Source: Spirochaetota bacterium
GTDB lineage: Bacteria > Spirochaetota > UBA4802 > JAFGDQ01
Direction of reading: 5' to 3'
Length of the DNA: 64,000 nt
Assembly: GCA_043803405.1 (NCBI GenBank)
Contig: JAZDKB010000053.1
Span: 1 to 64,000, forward strand
The translations under genes were made by a program, and so were the position numbers. This document shows positions 30,127 through 53,338 of the stretch, piece after piece; within the stretch, counting starts at the first letter, position 1, and every line of letters begins with the position of its first letter. The notes below the pieces were generated by a model. It saw only the letters and a program-made list of their open reading frames with translations, did not search any database and was not told the DNA's origin.

Positions 30127-30240
30127 GCCCCCTAAATCCCCCTAGAGGGGGACTTAAAAGCGGAAAAAGCACAAGCCTTTCAATTTAAAAAAATCATAAG
30201 TCCTCCTCTAGGGGGATGGCGGCGAAACAGCCTAGGGGGC
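30127..30240. mobile_element. Empty CCCCCTAA(A/C)..CCC..GGGGG-family palindromic element (family A)
   Basis: GCCCCCTAAATCCCCCTAGAGGGGGACTTA (30127-30156) pairs with TAAGTCCTCCTCTAGGGGGAT[GGCGGCGAAACAGCC]TAGGGGGC (30197-30240). Confidence 0.8.
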
Positions 30241-31773: not shown

Positions 31774-31812
31774 AATGACTTTAAGGTTTTTGTAGAGTTA
31801 TATTTTTTTTAT

Positions 31813-31919
31813 TAGACTTGTTGCAAATCTAAAGTGTCATTTCGACCGAAGGGAGAAATCTATTAACAAAATGAAAGATTTCTCCCTTCGGTCGAAATGA
31901 CACTTTTACAACAAGACTA
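31813..31919. repeat. TGTCATTTCGACCGAAGGGAGAAATCT-family palindromic element
   Basis: Perfect 31-bp IR 31831-31861/31876-31906 inside an outer TAGACTTGTTG/CAACAAGACTA pair; degenerate copy at 56741-56832. Confidence 0.85.
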
Positions 31920-31928
31920 TTCATTAAG

Positions 31929-31953
31929 CTCTGTGCCTCAGTGTCTCTGTGGC
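31929..31953. repeat. Solo arm of the GCCACAGAG(xCACAGAG)n family
   Basis: CTCTGTGCCTCAGTGTCTCTGTGGC, same as the right arms at 33139 and 40097. Confidence 0.75.
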
Positions 31954-32001
31954 AAATTTTTTTTTAGGAATATTATCATTCAATGATATGGAGGACATGC
32001 A

Positions 32002-32960: not shown

Positions 32961-33165
32961 TGCCACAGACTCACAGAGACGCAGAGAAGTAAAATAGGTC
33001 TTATTTTAATTTTAAAATATTTACAAGTCATCTCGAAATTAACTTTAATATTTTTTAAATTGTAATGTATTACAATTTAAAGTCAGCTATTTATGTAAAA
33101 TCATATTTTTGGGACGAGCTTTACTTATGTTTTTTTTATCTCTGTGTCTCCGTGACTCTGTGGCA
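32961..33165. repeat. GCCACAGAG-family inverted-repeat element
   Basis: 27-bp arms 32961-32987 and 33139-33165 (24/27 complementary) built from 8-bp xCACAGAG units; central perfect palindrome 33054-33081. Confidence 0.8.
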
Positions 33166-33262
33166 GATTCAGTAATAGCTTTTTAATAGTATATTCTAAG
33201 TTATTTCACTAAGTTATATAGTTTAAACATGATTTAAATCTGAATAAATTCAGGAAAACAAT

Positions 33263-35224: not shown

Positions 35225-35301
35225 GAGATAAGCTCTCTAACCCTAAAGGGGCATGGCTGTCTAATGCTGATTATTTTTGTTGTAAATCGGATATGCTCCC
35301 A

Positions 35302-35399
35302 GCCCCCTAACCCCCTAAAGGGGGCAACGGCTTGGAAATTATTTCGGCGAATGTTACGTTTTTTTACAAGAATATGCCCCCTTTAGGGGGTTAGGGGGC
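35302..35399. mobile_element. Empty family-A palindromic element
   Basis: Perfect 25-bp IR GCCCCCTAACCCCCTAAAGGGGGCA (35302-35326)/(35375-35399) around a 48-bp spacer; extra degenerate arm at 35232-35253. Confidence 0.88.
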
Positions 35400-35440
35400 C
35401 GAAGAAGCAAAGGCAATCATATAGTAAAATATTTCTAAAC

Positions 35441-35627
35441 TAGGGGAAGCAATCCCCCAGTTAGGGGAAACAATCCCCCTGATGGGGAAAAGAACTTCCC
35501 TCCAGGGAAATTAAATATCCCAACTGGGGAATGGAATCTCCCTCGAGGGAAATAGAATTTCCCAGATGGGAAAGAAGATATCCCTTGTGGGAGGAATAAT
35601 ATCCCTGATGGGGGAAATAGTTTCCCT
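35441..35627. repeat. Degenerate 21-bp tandem repeat array (about 9 units)
   Basis: GGG runs at 35443, 35464, 35484, 35505, 35526, 35547, 35568, 35589 and 35610, each followed by ...TCCC/CCCC. Confidence 0.85.
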
Positions 35628-35678
35628 TTAGTACATTTAAGTATAACGATTATGTAATAATTTTCAGGAGGCAACGAG

Positions 35679-37883
35679 GTGTCCAAGATTATAGCTTCTG
35701 CGGGCATTAGAGGCGCTTACAGGATTGTCGAAAGGGCAGAAACAAAACTGAAAGAGTCGATCGATAAATGGGGTCCGAACAGGGAAGTCGCGTTCCCCAA
35801 TACCGGATATTATCTTCCCATTATTTACGGAATACTCGGACATAGAGTAGAAAAACTGAAAGATATGGAATATGTTATTTCCGTGTGCCGGAATCTGCTG
35901 CCTCCGCCCGTAAGGGAGAAGCATCATCTTCCATACCTTGGCCCTGCTCTTGATGCCGGCATGGCTACTTTTTTTGCAGAAGAAATAATTGAAGCAATAA
36001 AATATATTGAGAACCCGAACGTGTATGTAAAGGGCGAGGATATCACTGACAGCAACATCTGGCTGGGAGCCGCGGACGATGTTATTTTAAGAAAGCGCGG
36101 TGTGGAATTCGTTGACGGCACAGCTCCCGGGTTCGCCGCGATCCTGGGCGCGCCCGAGGACCCGAAGGTCGCTGCAAAGATCGCGCTCGAGCTTCAGGAG
36201 AAGAATCTGTACGTGTTCATGTGCGCTCATACCGACGGGCGCAGCATGCCGGAGCAGCTTATAAGCGAAGGGGTGCAGGTAGGGTGGGGCACAAGACTTG
36301 TGCCCTTTGGCCCGGAGTCGTCCGCAGCAGTATTCGCGATCGGGTTCGCGACCAGGGCTGCAATGTCGTTCGGGGGCATTGAGCCCGGCGATTACCGCAA
36401 AATTCTCATCTATAACAAAGACCGCATCTTCGCGTTCGCAATGACCCTCGGTTACGTAAGCGACGACTGGTACGCGAACGGGCTGGGGTGCGTGAACTAC
36501 GGCTTCCCGATCATAGCAGATACCCCGATTCCGGAAATTCTGCCTACCGGGATCTGCACCTACGAGCATGTGGTATCGAACATTCCGCACGGGAATATTG
36601 TTGCAAAGGCGATCGAGGTAAGGGGGCTCAAGGTAAATGTCACAAAGGTGCCTGTTCCTGTCGCGTACGGGCCTGCGTTCGAAGGGGAAAGGGTAAGGGG
36701 GGATGATATTTTTCTGGAAGCCGGCGGCGGCCGCACACATGCAGTTGAGCTTGTGGTATCCGCAGACATGAATGCAATTACGGACGGAAAAATAGAAGTA
36801 GTAGGGCCGGATGTGAAAGATGTTGCTCCGGGAGCGACTCTCCCGCTCGCTGTATACATCCAGGTTGCAGGCAGGGAGATGCAGGAGGATTTTGAGCCTA
36901 TACTCGAAAGGCAGATCCATCATCTTATTAATTACGCGCAGGGTATAATGCATATCGGCCAGAGGGACATTGCGTGGCTAAGGGTGTCCAGGCAGGCTGT
37001 AGACAAAGGATTTAAGCTCTCCAATATAGGCGATATCATGCATGCCAAATTCCACCAGGAATTCGGCAGCATACTGGATAAGGTACAGGTAACCATATAT
37101 ACCGAAGAAAAAAAAGTAAGCGAGATACTTGAGCAGGCGAGGGCTGTGTACAAACAGCGCGATGACAGGATAGCCGGCATGACAGACGAGGACACGAATC
37201 CGTTTTATTCATGCACTCTTTGCCAGTCGTTCGCTCCGAATCATGTGTGCATCGTAACACCTGAGAGGACCGGCCTTTGCGGTGCTTATAACTGGCTGGA
37301 CTGCAAGGCATCGAATGAGATGAACCCGACAGGCCCGAATCAGCCTGTGCCCAAAGACAAAGTGATTGACGCAAAATACGGGCAGTGGAAAGGCGTGGAT
37401 GATTTTGTTGCAAAGGCATCAAGGGGAAATGTGCTGACAGTGGACGCGTACAGTATAATGAGGAACCCCATGACATCATGCGGGTGCTTTGAATGCATTG
37501 CGGCAATTCTTCCGCTGTGCAACGGCATAATGATAGTTGACAGGGATACATCCGTGATGACGCCCAGCGGAATGAAATTTACAACGCTTGCAGGCATGGT
37601 GGGCGGCGGCAATGTGACCCCGGGATTCCTGGGACACAGCAAGTATTACATTACCAGCAAAAAATTTATTCTGGCAGAAGGCGGTATTAAAAGGATTGTG
37701 TGGATGCCGAAGTCGCTTAAGGAAGAGATAAAGGAACGCTTTAATGAAATGGCTTCCAGAACCGGATGCCCCGATCTTCTGGACAGGATCGCAGATGAGA
37801 CTGTCGGCGTTGCTGAAGAAGAAGTACTGACTTATCTTACAGAGAAACAGCATCCGGCGCTTACAATGGATCCGATGTTTTAA
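35679..37883 (+). CDS. acsB: Acetyl-CoA synthase catalytic subunit (bacterial-type, with N-terminal domain)
   Basis: FPNTGYYLP, A-cluster ligands CTLCQSFAPNHVC, GLCGAYNWLDC and TSCGCFEC; AGGAGG plus GTG start. Confidence 0.97.
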   Translation: MSKIIASAGIRGAYRIVERAETKLKESIDKWGPNREVAFPNTGYYLPIIYGILGHRVEKLKDMEYVISVCRNLLPPPVREKHHLPYLGPALDAGMATFFAEEIIEAIKYIENPNVYVKGEDITDSNIWLGAADDVILRKRGVEFVDGTAPGFAAILGAPEDPKVAAKIALELQEKNLYVFMCAHTDGRSMPEQLISEGVQVGWGTRLVPFGPESSAAVFAIGFATRAAMSFGGIEPGDYRKILIYNKDRIFAFAMTLGYVSDDWYANGLGCVNYGFPIIADTPIPEILPTGICTYEHVVSNIPHGNIVAKAIEVRGLKVNVTKVPVPVAYGPAFEGERVRGDDIFLEAGGGRTHAVELVVSADMNAITDGKIEVVGPDVKDVAPGATLPLAVYIQVAGREMQEDFEPILERQIHHLINYAQGIMHIGQRDIAWLRVSRQAVDKGFKLSNIGDIMHAKFHQEFGSILDKVQVTIYTEEKKVSEILEQARAVYKQRDDRIAGMTDEDTNPFYSCTLCQSFAPNHVCIVTPERTGLCGAYNWLDCKASNEMNPTGPNQPVPKDKVIDAKYGQWKGVDDFVAKASRGNVLTVDAYSIMRNPMTSCGCFECIAAILPLCNGIMIVDRDTSVMTPSGMKFTTLAGMVGGGNVTPGFLGHSKYYITSKKFILAEGGIKRIVWMPKSLKEEIKERFNEMASRTGCPDLLDRIADETVGVAEEEVLTYLTEKQHPALTMDPMF

Positions 37884-37952
37884 GGTGTGAAATTATAGTT
37901 TCTAGCTGGGTATTTAAGCAGCCGATTTTTTAAGAATGATTATTTTTACTTC

Positions 37953-38481
37953 TTCAGCCCCCTAACCCCCAAAGGGGGCATAATTGGGAAGGTCTGGATA
38001 GTAAGTCATTATTACCAGATGAAAGGAATGTTGCAAAACAATGAACAAAGGAGTAAAAACGCCTGATTATATAATACAGTTGGCCAGAGATATGAGAAAT
38101 AATATGACCATTGCTGAAAAGAAGTTATGGTCGGCTATAAATAAGAAACAGATTGATGGCTTTAAATTTAGAAATCAGCATCCTGTAAATCGTTATATAC
38201 TTGATTTTTATTGCGATAATAAACAACTCGCTATTGAGGTTGATGGGGATGTTCATATTAAAAAGCAGGAAGATGATAAATATAGAGACGAATTTTTAAA
38301 TAGTCTGAGCATCAGAGTTTTACGTTTTAGCAATAATGATATTATGACTGATTTAGATACTGTTATAAATAAGATTAAAAAGGAATTATCTGCTTAATAG
38401 AAAATATTATCTAATAATAGCAGGATTTCTATTGAATAATGTTTTTCAGAATGTGCCCCCTTTGGGGGTTAGGGGGCCGAA
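37953..38481. mobile_element. Family-A element carrying a DUF559 endonuclease gene (candidate autonomous copy)
   Basis: 28-bp IR TTCAGCCCCCTAACCCCCAAAGGGGGCA (37953-37980)/TGCCCCCTTTGGGGGTTAGGGGGCCGAA (38454-38481), 1 mismatch, bracketing a single ORF. Confidence 0.8.
38041..38397 (+). CDS. DUF559 / Vsr-like endonuclease domain protein
   Basis: LARDMRNNMTIAEKKLW...GFKFRNQHPVNRYILDFYC...LAIEVDGDVH...DKYRDEFL...IRVLRFSN. Confidence 0.92.
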   Translation: MNKGVKTPDYIIQLARDMRNNMTIAEKKLWSAINKKQIDGFKFRNQHPVNRYILDFYCDNKQLAIEVDGDVHIKKQEDDKYRDEFLNSLSIRVLRFSNNDIMTDLDTVINKIKKELSA

Positions 38482-38631
38482 AGGGCAATTGCGATGTTAT
38501 GCAAGTATGTTTTTCCAAAAGCAAATAATAATAACAGATATTTAGCATGAGGCAGCCCTTGGGTGCAGGGTGGGAAGAAATATTAATAACGAAAATTCGA
38601 ATTACTAAATTATACTTCAGGAGATTACATA

Positions 38632-39981
38632 ATGGCGCTATCCGGAATTGAGATTTATAAAATGCTTCCGCAGACTAACTGCAAAGACTGCGGCGTACCG
38701 ACATGTCTTGCGTTTGCCATGAAGCTTGCTGCAGGCCAGGCAGAGCTCGATAAATGTCCTCATGTGTCAGCCGAATCCAGAGAAAAGCTTTCGAGTGCGT
38801 CAGCGCCCCCGGTTATTCCTGTGACAATAGGAGCAGGCGCGGATATTTTTAAAACAGGCGGCGAGACTGTGCTCTTTAGGCACGACAAGACATTCGTTAA
38901 TCCTACAGGCATTGCTGTTTTAGTATCAGATAAAATGAGCGATGCTGATGTTGACAGAAGGCTGAAGAATTTCAGAGAGCTGCAGTATGAGCGCGTGGGA
39001 CTTCATCTGAAGGCCGATCTTATAGCAATAAAATCCGAAAGCGGCGATGCGTCCGTTTTTGAAAAACTTATCGGTAAAGTAAAAGCTTCCGTGAATGCCG
39101 GGCTGATACTGATGAGCGATAAGACCGATGTTCTGAGCGCGGGCGTTAAGGCATGTGCAGAAAGAAAACCGCTTCTGTACGCAGCGACAAAAGAAAACGC
39201 AGAGGCGGTCGGCAACCTGGCAAAGGAAAACAAATGCGCTGTTGCCGTAAAAGGCAGCAGCATTGATGAAGTAATTGAGCTGACCACTAAACTTACAGGC
39301 ATGGGCATTAAGGAAATCGTGATCGATTCCGGATCGCGTACATTAAGAAAAGCGTTCGAAGAACAGATCATTATAAGGCGCGCTGCAATAAAGAAAGCCT
39401 TTCGGTCGCTTGGTTTCCCGACAATCACTTTCCCGTGCGAGATGACAAATGATCCTATGGAAGAAACGTTGATTGCCTCGACCTTTATTGCCAAGTACAG
39501 CGGCATTGTTGTGCTGTCCGGTCTTGAGGGGCACAGCCTGTTCCCGCTTCTGGTGCAGAGAATGAATATATTTACTGATCCCCAGCGGCCAATGGCAACC
39601 GAACAGGGCATATATCCGTTTAACAATCCGGACGAAAATTCGCCTCTGCTCATTACTTCGAATTTTTCGTTAACATATTTTATAGTGTCAGGCGAAATTG
39701 AAGGGAGCAGGGTGCCTTCATGGCTTTTGATTCTGGATACTGACGGATTATCCGTGCTAACAGCATGGGCAGCAGGCAAATTCGTTCCGGATATAATTGG
39801 CGCGTTCGTTAAAAAAAGCGGAATAACGGATAAGATAAAACACAGGTCGCTTGTTATACCCGGTTTTGTCGCATCAATAAGCGGCGAACTGGAAGAGGAG
39901 CTTTCCGGCTGGAAGATCACGATAGGCCCAAGAGAGGCGCAGCATATTCCGAAATTCCTTAAAGAATACAGAGCCGGATAA
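38632..39981 (+). CDS. acsC: Corrinoid iron-sulfur protein large subunit
   Basis: LPQTNCKDCGVPTCLAFA...CP [4Fe-4S] motif, ETVLFRHDK, FTDPQRP, TSNFSLTY, SVLTAWAAGKF. Confidence 0.96.
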   Translation: MALSGIEIYKMLPQTNCKDCGVPTCLAFAMKLAAGQAELDKCPHVSAESREKLSSASAPPVIPVTIGAGADIFKTGGETVLFRHDKTFVNPTGIAVLVSDKMSDADVDRRLKNFRELQYERVGLHLKADLIAIKSESGDASVFEKLIGKVKASVNAGLILMSDKTDVLSAGVKACAERKPLLYAATKENAEAVGNLAKENKCAVAVKGSSIDEVIELTTKLTGMGIKEIVIDSGSRTLRKAFEEQIIIRRAAIKKAFRSLGFPTITFPCEMTNDPMEETLIASTFIAKYSGIVVLSGLEGHSLFPLLVQRMNIFTDPQRPMATEQGIYPFNNPDENSPLLITSNFSLTYFIVSGEIEGSRVPSWLLILDTDGLSVLTAWAAGKFVPDIIGAFVKKSGITDKIKHRSLVIPGFVASISGELEEELSGWKITIGPREAQHIPKFLKEYRAG

Positions 39982-40025
39982 TGTATGTAAATTTACTAGT
40001 ATCCGGACTGGATAAATTCAAATTG

Positions 40026-40126
40026 ATTTTGCCACAGAGGCACGGAGTCACAGAGAAGACAAATTAATTATTTTTATAATAAAAACAAAGAAAAAACTCA
40101 GTTTCTCAGTGCCTCCGTGGTAAAAT
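40026..40126. repeat. GCCACAGAG-family inverted-repeat element
   Basis: ATTTTGCCACAGAGGCACGGAGTCACAGAG pairs with CTCAGTTTCTCAGTGCCTCCGTGGTAAAAT. Confidence 0.78.
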
Positions 40127-48975: not shown

Positions 48976-49143
48976 AATGCCCTCACCCCAGGATTGCCTC
49001 ACGCTAAATGGATTACGCTTCAGTACCCTCACCCGCCTGGCGCTATCGCGCCAAGCACCCTCTCCCGCGAAGCGCGGGTGAGGGTTAAGTTCCTCCCTCG
49101 CCCGCGCTTCGCGGGAGAGGGAGGTTAGGAGGGTGAGGGCATT
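48976..49143. mobile_element. Empty CCCTCACCC..CCCTCTCCC..GGGAGAGGG-family palindromic element (family B)
   Basis: Outer AATGCCCTCACCC/GGGTGAGGGCATT; inner 27-bp IR 49058-49084/49095-49121; 48994-49088 is near-identical to 53021-53115. Confidence 0.85.
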
Positions 49144-53020: not shown

Positions 53021-53338
53021 TTGCCTTGTGCTAAGCGGATTACGTTTCAGTGTCCTCACCCGCCTGGCGCTATCGCGCCATGCACCCTCTCCCGCGAAAC
53101 GCGGGCGAGGGTTAAAAAATTTCTATATCAGTATCTATTTCTTTGGCGGTTTCATGTTCCTTAACTTAATATATTTCTGAGTTTGTCTTCCTCAGGTGTT
53201 GAGTCATGTCTAATATCTCTGAAAAATAATTTTTTCTATTGCATATAATATGTTTTTCCTGGTTCCCCTCTCCCTGACTGCCGACCCCCTGTTACGAATA
53301 ATACTAAATTCAGGGAGAGGGGTTAGGGATGAGGGCAT
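53021..53338. mobile_element. Family-B element enclosing a decayed DUF559 gene
   Basis: Left arm 53021-53115 (copy of 48994-49088); right arm CCCCTCTCCCTGA...TCAGGGAGAGGGGTTAGGGATGAGGGCAT. Confidence 0.75.
53112..53244 (-). pseudogene. DUF559 endonuclease remnant
   Basis: 53244-53161 reads MQ*KKLFFRDIRHDSTPEEDKLRNILS* (compare LARDMRNNMTIAEKKLW); a shifted frame then gives ETAKEIDTDIEIF* (compare SNNDIMTDLD); catalytic middle deleted. Confidence 0.65.

Follow-up and report, generated by a model that had tools for sequence, protein, structure and literature searches.

A DUF559 nuclease gene between BoxC-like repeats in the acs operon of a Spirochaetota bacterium: a candidate mobile cassette with an outer ISAs1-type layer

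A small gene for a predicted nuclease in the acs operon of a Spirochaetota bacterium is bounded by short palindromic repeat arms, and across related genomes DUF559 genes of this kind are associated with arms whose type is specific for the clade of the protein. We analyzed the locus in a stretch of 64,000 nucleotides (contig JAZDKB010000053.1, hereafter the window) and observed, in addition, gene-less deletion derivatives of the cassette and shells with ISAs1-type ends around part of the copies. The reading that we prefer, with a somewhat better than even chance of being correct, is an element of two layers, in which an old selfish unit of nuclease and arms is here secondarily carried in ISAs1 mini-elements. 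Judging from sequence comparison, the repeats are likely spread by a partner of their own, the DUF559 enzyme, and a transposase encoded elsewhere has likely moved many gene-less copies via ISAs1-type ends in the host lineage. The repeats, the protein family and a REPtron-like layout are each already known; for their combination, no paper describing a pairing of DUF559 with BoxC was found in the openly readable main texts that we searched. The features of the inner layer are:

35679..37883, plus strand: acsB, acetyl-CoA synthase, upstream context
37953..37980, plus strand: left arm, composed of a C5 mirror block, TAA and a C5-AAA-G5 hairpin; a short BoxC/TM-like triplex motif, C-rich strand
38041..38397, plus strand: DUF559 (YcjD-like) gene for a predicted nuclease, a Vsr/EDxHD-fold endonuclease of 118 aa (PF04480, E 5.8e-36)
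38454..38481, minus strand: right arm, an inverted copy of the left arm in 27/28 bases
38632..39981, plus strand: acsC, corrinoid Fe-S protein large subunit, downstream context
35302..35399, no strand: gene-less doublet, arms 35302-35326 and 35375-35399, a perfect 25-bp inverted pair with a 48-bp spacer
30127..30240, no strand: gene-less doublet of the AAAT-linker subtype, with a small extra hairpin in the right arm between stem and mirror block
35232..35251, plus strand: degenerate arm, abutting an ISAs1-type end and likely the insertion target of that end

Both acs genes are part of a Wood-Ljungdahl cluster. An initial annotation, made from the sequence alone, had described an AT-rich DUF559 gene between acsB and acsC, which is confirmed by the PF04480 match and by a GC content of 29.4% compared with 51.1% in acsB, 47.3% in acsC and 39.1% in the whole genome. 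The 28-bp inverted repeat around the gene, the gene-less copies and the degenerate arm that it had reported are all present, and its statement that neither a transposase gene nor a target-site duplication is visible at the cassette also holds, since no transposase gene adjoins the cassette and its two flanks have no direct repeat of more than 6 bp in common. A promoter and terminator scan yielded six promoter-like sites, all on the minus strand, versus 3.8 +/- 1.7 expected by chance, and no terminators. The host genome contains four DUF559 genes in total: the second has the arm type of the window on both sides, the third is accompanied by a different palindrome family and the flanks of the fourth gave no detectable motif.

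The arm family is not a product of chance, as its pattern occurs in 52 copies in the 3.98-Mb genome versus 0, 0 and 0 in three block shuffles. Inverted doublets, 18 in number, account for 36 of these arms, and their core-to-core spacers fall into classes of 50-54 bp (nine doublets), 98-100 bp (two) and 141-145 bp (six), with the window DUF559 gene at 477 bp. The two empty doublets at 35302-35399 and 30127-30240 fold with z scores of -7.1 and -6.7 in a tool that models duplex pairs only, and a single arm alone folds no better than dinucleotide shuffles (z -0.8 and -0.3). The doublets of about 143 bp are informative for the origin of the gene-less copies: at about 72% they align to the left arm, the spacer and the first ~70-80 bp of the window DUF559 gene, they are 84-90% alike to the right end of the cassette, and 6 of 7 spacers of this class align to the left spacer plus the 5' end of the gene above the best of 200 shuffles. 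Judged by these alignments, this class consists of internal deletions of the window cassette, and the initial suggestion of a link between gene-less copies and the nuclease cassette is borne out in the form of such deletion derivatives. The spacers of ~50 bp and ~99 bp showed no convincing alignment to any flank among 103 DUF559 loci. The one read joint, from 35352 to 38448, stems from another repeat copy (two DNA runs with shares of 0.09 and 0.05, at sparse coverage of the site).

Known since the 1990s, the widespread BoxC/PIT/TM repeats have been tied to local genome variability. To our knowledge neither a function nor an enzyme has been assigned to them, and we know of no function for DUF559, which is a common family. 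On its G-rich strand the window arm is built of a pyrimidine stem, a loop, a purine stem, TTA and a mirror G block, and both arms are found by a class II triplex-motif detector at a stem of at least 5. This is the class II order of BoxC/PIT/TMECO with the TTA second loop of type A, and the arms also resemble these repeats in being intergenic and often arranged as inverted pairs, as far as described in the available part of Holder et al. (2015; PMC4666352). In contrast to them, the window stems comprise 5 nt, all G/C, and lie under the ITxF cut-off of 6-15 nt, and the TMECO consensus is not matched; therefore, the arms are BoxC-like in layout and fall outside the formal definition. Related DUF559 clades have mixed stems of 8-10 nt. 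A further difference is the nuclease gene between the arms and the IS ends outside them, whereas the available part of Holder et al. (2015; PMC4666352) names no partner enzyme, contains neither "ycjD" nor "endonuclease", and reports that neither mobility genes nor transposase remnants were found close to TMECO and that a stable triplex was not seen in vivo. In E. coli, TMECO no. 9 lies 168 bp downstream of ycjD, which is annotated as DUF559, and no such arm was seen in the 79 bp upstream.

The association of arms and DUF559 was analyzed at 103 loci, made up of the stronger 89 of 219 matches in the order, 10 further relatives and the four genes of the host; three loci with short flanks were dropped, which leaves 100 usable loci and, after removal of two duplicates, 98. 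A triplex-type motif within 300 nt is present on one side at 81/100 loci (79/98 without duplicates) and on both sides at 59/100 (57/98), in comparison to 0/16 Vsr loci and 7/1500 random windows. At PF01797 (HUH transposase) loci it was found in 0 of 28 cases at 500 nt; from several hundred matches the top one of each of 30 genomes had been taken, and 28 of these loci were scored. The enrichment of DUF559 genes between arms, which the initial annotation had proposed to check, is thus seen in 79 of 98 loci versus none of the Vsr and HUH-transposase loci. In all 10 further relatives (Spirochaetota, Bacteroidota and one unassigned), whose gene contexts are unrelated, inspection by eye shows C/G arms to the left and right of the gene, and 7 of them are scored by the strict detector. 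Across the order, and in Bacteroidota as well, the DUF559 cassette is found again at sites that are unrelated to each other.

Furthermore, the arm type tracks the protein clade, a second relationship that had been put forward for checking. On a quick tree of 101 proteins and 118 columns the arm label changes 13 times versus a shuffled mean of 48, and none of 200 shuffles was as low, with labels that are regular expressions written after the loci were seen and with kin that are not independent. The window protein belongs to a branch of 37 rows (SH-aLRT 96) in which every member has C5/G5 arms, and one supported clade of 12 rows is mostly without arms under the labels used (7/12). Single genomes hold several DUF559 clades with different arms, which argues that the arms follow the protein and not the host. 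Genomes were also compared by whether they encode a close homologue (E <= 1e-30): at least 10 exact arms occur in 12 of the 35 that do and in 5 of the 87 that do not. Five arm-rich genomes are thus without a close DUF559 homologue, and in 7 of the 35 the search pattern gave no exact arm. In four genomes the DUF559 cassette is inserted in frame in the C-terminal part of the type I HsdM, with the arms translated at the borders. In this type I restriction-modification protein, cassettes and also gene-less arms were seen in frame at L069, L071, L079 and L127, and no splicing element was seen there.

Ten residues are invariant in 53 DUF559 sequences, and all of them are present in the window protein (R19, E26, Q46, D55, E66, D68, G69, H72, D79 and R95). 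Its structure model (pLDDT 88) matches in a structure search, in this order, Neisseria 3hrl, the catalytic domain of I-Bth0305I (E 9e-5), with which a profile search agrees, and Vsr (Foldseek E 0.02-0.05 against 1vsr and 1cw0). The protein is a putative nuclease. Vsr genes usually have a cytosine methyltransferase as neighbor. The window gene shares the predicted fold of this repair endonuclease (PF03852) and differs from it in having acsB and acsC as neighbors and no methyltransferase, whereas Vsr loci are armless (0/16); no PF03852 match was found in the host genome. I-Bth0305I is a Vsr-fold homing endonuclease that cleaves the allele lacking its intron and has an extra DNA-binding region, according to the available part of the report (PMC3239194), and Vsr, DUF559 and 3r3p have been grouped in one clade in the accessible part of another study (PMC3424549). 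The initial statement that DUF559 has no established mobility role has to be softened in this respect, as the nearest solved structure of known function is the catalytic domain of a homing endonuclease. The EDxHD enzymes of this type (I-Bth0305I, PDB 3r3p) have a catalytic fold that the model predicts for the window protein as well, including conserved acidic and histidine residues, and are a precedent for a Vsr-fold enzyme that spreads its own gene. In contrast to I-Bth0305I, the window protein is a single domain of 118 aa encoded by a free-standing gene, without separate N-terminal DNA-binding region, intron or intein, and it is bounded by repeats. Substitution rates indicate that the clade of the window gene is under purifying selection, with a median dN/dS of 0.14 and 26 of 26 unsaturated pairs below 0.5 (35 genes; the window gene is in no pair).

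Taken into a mechanism, the arms would fold when single-stranded into a hairpin, possibly a three-stranded one, and the Vsr-fold enzyme would recognize its own arm type and nick at or beside the arm. Host recombination repair would then copy the unit enclosed by the arms, with or without the gene, to intergenic positions or into protein loops, and such copying would proceed without target duplication, as in homing or the RAYT-driven spread of REPINs. Internal deletion gives rise to gene-less doublets, and ISAs1 ends would later have captured some of the units, which may then have moved by ordinary transposition. We propose that folded arms attract insertions of ISAs1 and IS1182 and that the composite shells may have arisen for this reason. 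In a more general form, which we consider tentatively and at somewhat less than an even chance, DUF559/YcjD proteins would be the mobilizing enzymes of BoxC-type triplex repeats: a minimal Vsr-fold nuclease would read a three-stranded or hairpin DNA end that is specific for its clade and would spread the gene and the gene-less doublets without transposase, and a subgroup of ISAs1 would have become specialized in using these repeats both as targets and as cargo. If true, this would be a mobility mechanism that is neither DDE nor HUH nor recombinase, and possibly a case of DNA triplex recognition by a nuclease. The locus makes the link between repeat and enzyme testable with one protein of 118 aa and a substrate of 25 bases, and arms swapped between clades offer a built-in control for specificity.

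The likeness between copies runs past the arms to a 19-bp motif starting CAGGGCTG, and the outer layer of the window, whose ISAs1-type ends the initial annotation had overlooked, comprises the following features:

38542..38560, minus strand: ISAs1-type terminal inverted repeat on the outer side of the right arm, 84 bp from its core; differs at 1 position from the 19-bp end of autonomous ISAs1 elements and has no left partner
38482..38541, no strand: conserved AT-rich stretch that separates the arm from the outer end; taken together with these two, it is 81-90% alike in unrelated copies that lack the gene
35252..35270, plus strand: ISAs1-type terminal repeat with 3 mismatches, at a distance of 51 bp on the outer side of the 35302 doublet and directly beside the degenerate arm

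Outside 21 of the 52 arms such an end is present, at a fixed distance of 51 bp (11) or at 58-84 bp (10), versus 1 of 5000 random windows, and it also wraps other palindrome families. The identical 19-mer ends three metagenome elements of ~1.25 kb (L088, L091, L101) that encode ISAs1 transposases (NF033564); the range of this end outside the order rests on 18 metagenome stretches. Direct repeats of 9-10 bp that agree to at least 80% are found at the ends of 5 of 12 two-ended shells, three of them perfect, compared with 2 of 132 mismatched pairs. Ends beginning with CAGGGCT and, in those 5 shells, target duplications of 9-10 bp are shared with the ISAs1 family and its MITEs (NF033564), and similar ends and a 10-bp duplication are described for the published ISAs1 element ISArsp11 in the accessible part of its report (PMC6305408). 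The shells differ from ISAs1 elements as they are without transposase, carry palindrome doublets or a DUF559 gene, and show a strong bias for landing in C/G-run hairpins: a C/G run lies within the outer 25 nt at 29 of 49 ISAs1-type ends in the host genome versus 329/5000, and in 9 of 15 distinct metagenome contigs the ends had landed in arms (by eye). The window DUF559 copy has one ISAs1-type end only and therefore no two-ended shell. The designation of the element as transposase-free in the initial annotation consequently stands for the immediate surroundings of the cassette, but not for the repeats as a whole, with 21 of 52 arms in ISAs1-ended shells and several of these shells flanked by duplications. 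It had also named a transposase elsewhere with the same arms as a finding that would speak against it, and the result comes close to this: ISAs1 carries the outer shell, but not the arms. To the left of the cassette, at 37911-37923, two 6-bp matches in direct orientation to both halves of the right-hand ISAs1 end were noticed, which may be due to chance or represent a decayed end.

These data give some weight to a rival explanation, in which the arms are landing pads, DDE transposases like ISAs1, IS1182 and similar ones do all the moving, and DUF559 is cargo kept for another reason. The frequency of ISAs1-type ends 51-84 bp outside the arms and the duplications at two-ended shells are in line with it, as are the replacement of a hairpin by IS1182 within a shell and a 58%-identical DUF559 cassette in G004 (L121) that has ISAs1-type ends on both sides, the latter without duplication. 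We nevertheless regard this explanation as unlikely, although it is the strongest of the rivals. Among the 122 order genomes, 6 contain the ISAs1 end motif, of which five belong to the family of the host, and this end type lies within 300 nt of 2 of 103 DUF559 loci, both again in that family, which marks it as a local add-on. Furthermore, 31 of the 52 arms are without ISAs1 end, the in-frame insertions in HsdM end at the arms, and clade-specific arms are left unexplained by a status as cargo. In practice, the ISAs1 layer means that outer IS ends have to be checked for before the number of empty doublets is attributed to DUF559.

The cognate ISAs1 transposase was found neither in the host genome nor in the order: PF13808 gave a match in 0 of 122 order genomes, the host assembly being 94% complete and broken at shell copies. 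Homologues of the L101 transposase are relatives with 29-40% identity in 10 of 301 phylum genomes, none of them in the order genomes sampled, and viral contigs contained no cognate ISAs1. Shell spacers were considered as remnants of an ISAs1 interior and rejected, as a comparison with three ISAs1 ends revealed no likeness (5-11 of 26). IS1182 was rejected as owner of the outer ends: the ends share about 11 bases and IS1182 lies inside the shell, whereas the exact ends and the 9-10-bp duplications are those of ISAs1. At G000:C44:27043-28757 (L050) an intact IS1182 transposase element exactly replaces the 20-bp hairpin in an ISAs1-ended shell, with TTA on both sides. In L032 (G005) and L033 (G006), ISAs1-type ends are followed by a small unrelated ORF and no transposase, and shells may carry other cargo as well.

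The history of the site was followed in 40 relatives, eight of which have acsB and acsC adjacent with gaps of 84-392 bp. None of these eight gaps contains a DUF559 gene, and the gene is therefore not vertically conserved at this junction. Comparison of the junction in relatives, proposed initially for sites without the gene and for exact ends, thus delivered gene-free sites, but no clean filled and empty pair that gives the exact ends, because the intergenic regions of the relatives are too diverged and sequencing reads covered the site poorly. The acsB-acsC junction harbors a gene-less doublet of the window's arm in the congener G002 and a related palindrome family in G021. A derivation of the G002 doublet from the window cassette by deletion was rejected, since its spacer scores 19-21 against the cassette interior with shuffle maxima of 27-32; as the spacer is not alignable to the interior, an independent insertion is likely. 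Some DUF559 cassettes occupy orthologous sites in different genomes of a single genus (L066/L084 and L058/L064, by eye), which suggests that movement is rare.

A second rival explanation is a host function, with DUF559 as a repair nuclease specific for DNA structure, by which folded arms would be trimmed or resolved, with the arms beside the gene as operators or RNA-stabilizing hairpins and with doublets that spread by recombination accidents. Purifying selection on the clade, the Vsr fold, the long retention at some sites and the recurrence of arms of the window's or a related family at acsB-acsC in G002 and G021 are in agreement with this idea. On the other hand, the presence of DUF559 is patchy, with 1-13 matches per positive genome, unrelated neighbors and several copies with stops, cassettes are inserted inside HsdM, and arm counts among relatives range from 0 to 77, and we consider such a host tool quite improbable, even more so than the transposase explanation.

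The initial annotation had read the repeats as REPIN-like, which is supported with respect to the doublet architecture with its 36 of 52 paired arms, but the closest known repeat is BoxC/PIT/TM and not REP. REP/REPIN/REPtron systems with RAYT likewise have the enzyme gene between palindromic arms, dispersed gene-less inverted doublets and repeat-specific enzyme clades, as described in the available parts of two reports (PMC3116915, PMC3733652), whereas the enzyme here has a predicted Vsr-type PD-(D/E)XK nuclease fold instead of an HUH tyrosine transposase, and the arms have an extra mirror block. That the arms are ordinary REP/REPIN sequences moved in trans by a RAYT or an IS200-type HUH transposase that captured DUF559 is largely refuted and highly improbable: in spite of the REPIN-like doublets (PMC3116915, as far as available) and of PF01797 in 106 of 122 order genomes, an HUH transposase with the same arms, named at the outset as a contrary finding, was seen neither among the 28 scored PF01797 loci (best matches, one per genome) nor at the host's two PF01797 genes, which carry palindromes unlike the arms, a GTAG/CGTC-like tag lies within 8 nt of 2 of 52 arms only, and no PF01797 match was obtained in G002 and G119, which contain 29 and 10 arms, respectively. 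HUH-transposase genes at G000:C18:117600-118500 and C7:56060-56660 have their own palindromes, one of them GTAG-tagged, and it seems that classic REPtron- or TIRtron-like systems coexist with the DUF559 system.

The window contains several other repeats. A longer TMECO-like doublet at 48989-49140, with mixed stems of 9 nt and an inserted hairpin, is located behind another ISAs1-type end; a partial copy lies at 53021-53115, and a two-ended shell at G000:C30:38066-38250 has a perfect 10-bp duplication. At 31810-31920 a perfect 31-bp inverted pair is placed inside a looser outer inverted repeat, with 13 related arms genome-wide; it resembles TGTC/CGTC-tagged repeats, and no partner gene was found for it. 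A CACAGAG-type repeat family (31924-31958, 33135-33169 and 40024-40126) has 22 copies in the genome. The other repeat families of the window are absent beside the GxxExxY and GIY-YIG genes of the host genome, and the GxxExxY genes have their own, different repeat family (G000:C18:47272 and C19:62322). Just upstream of acsB, at 35437-35644, about ten tandem units of 21 bp consist of short CCC-N3-GGG palindromes, and a similar array is located inside an ISAs1-type shell in G004 (L035).
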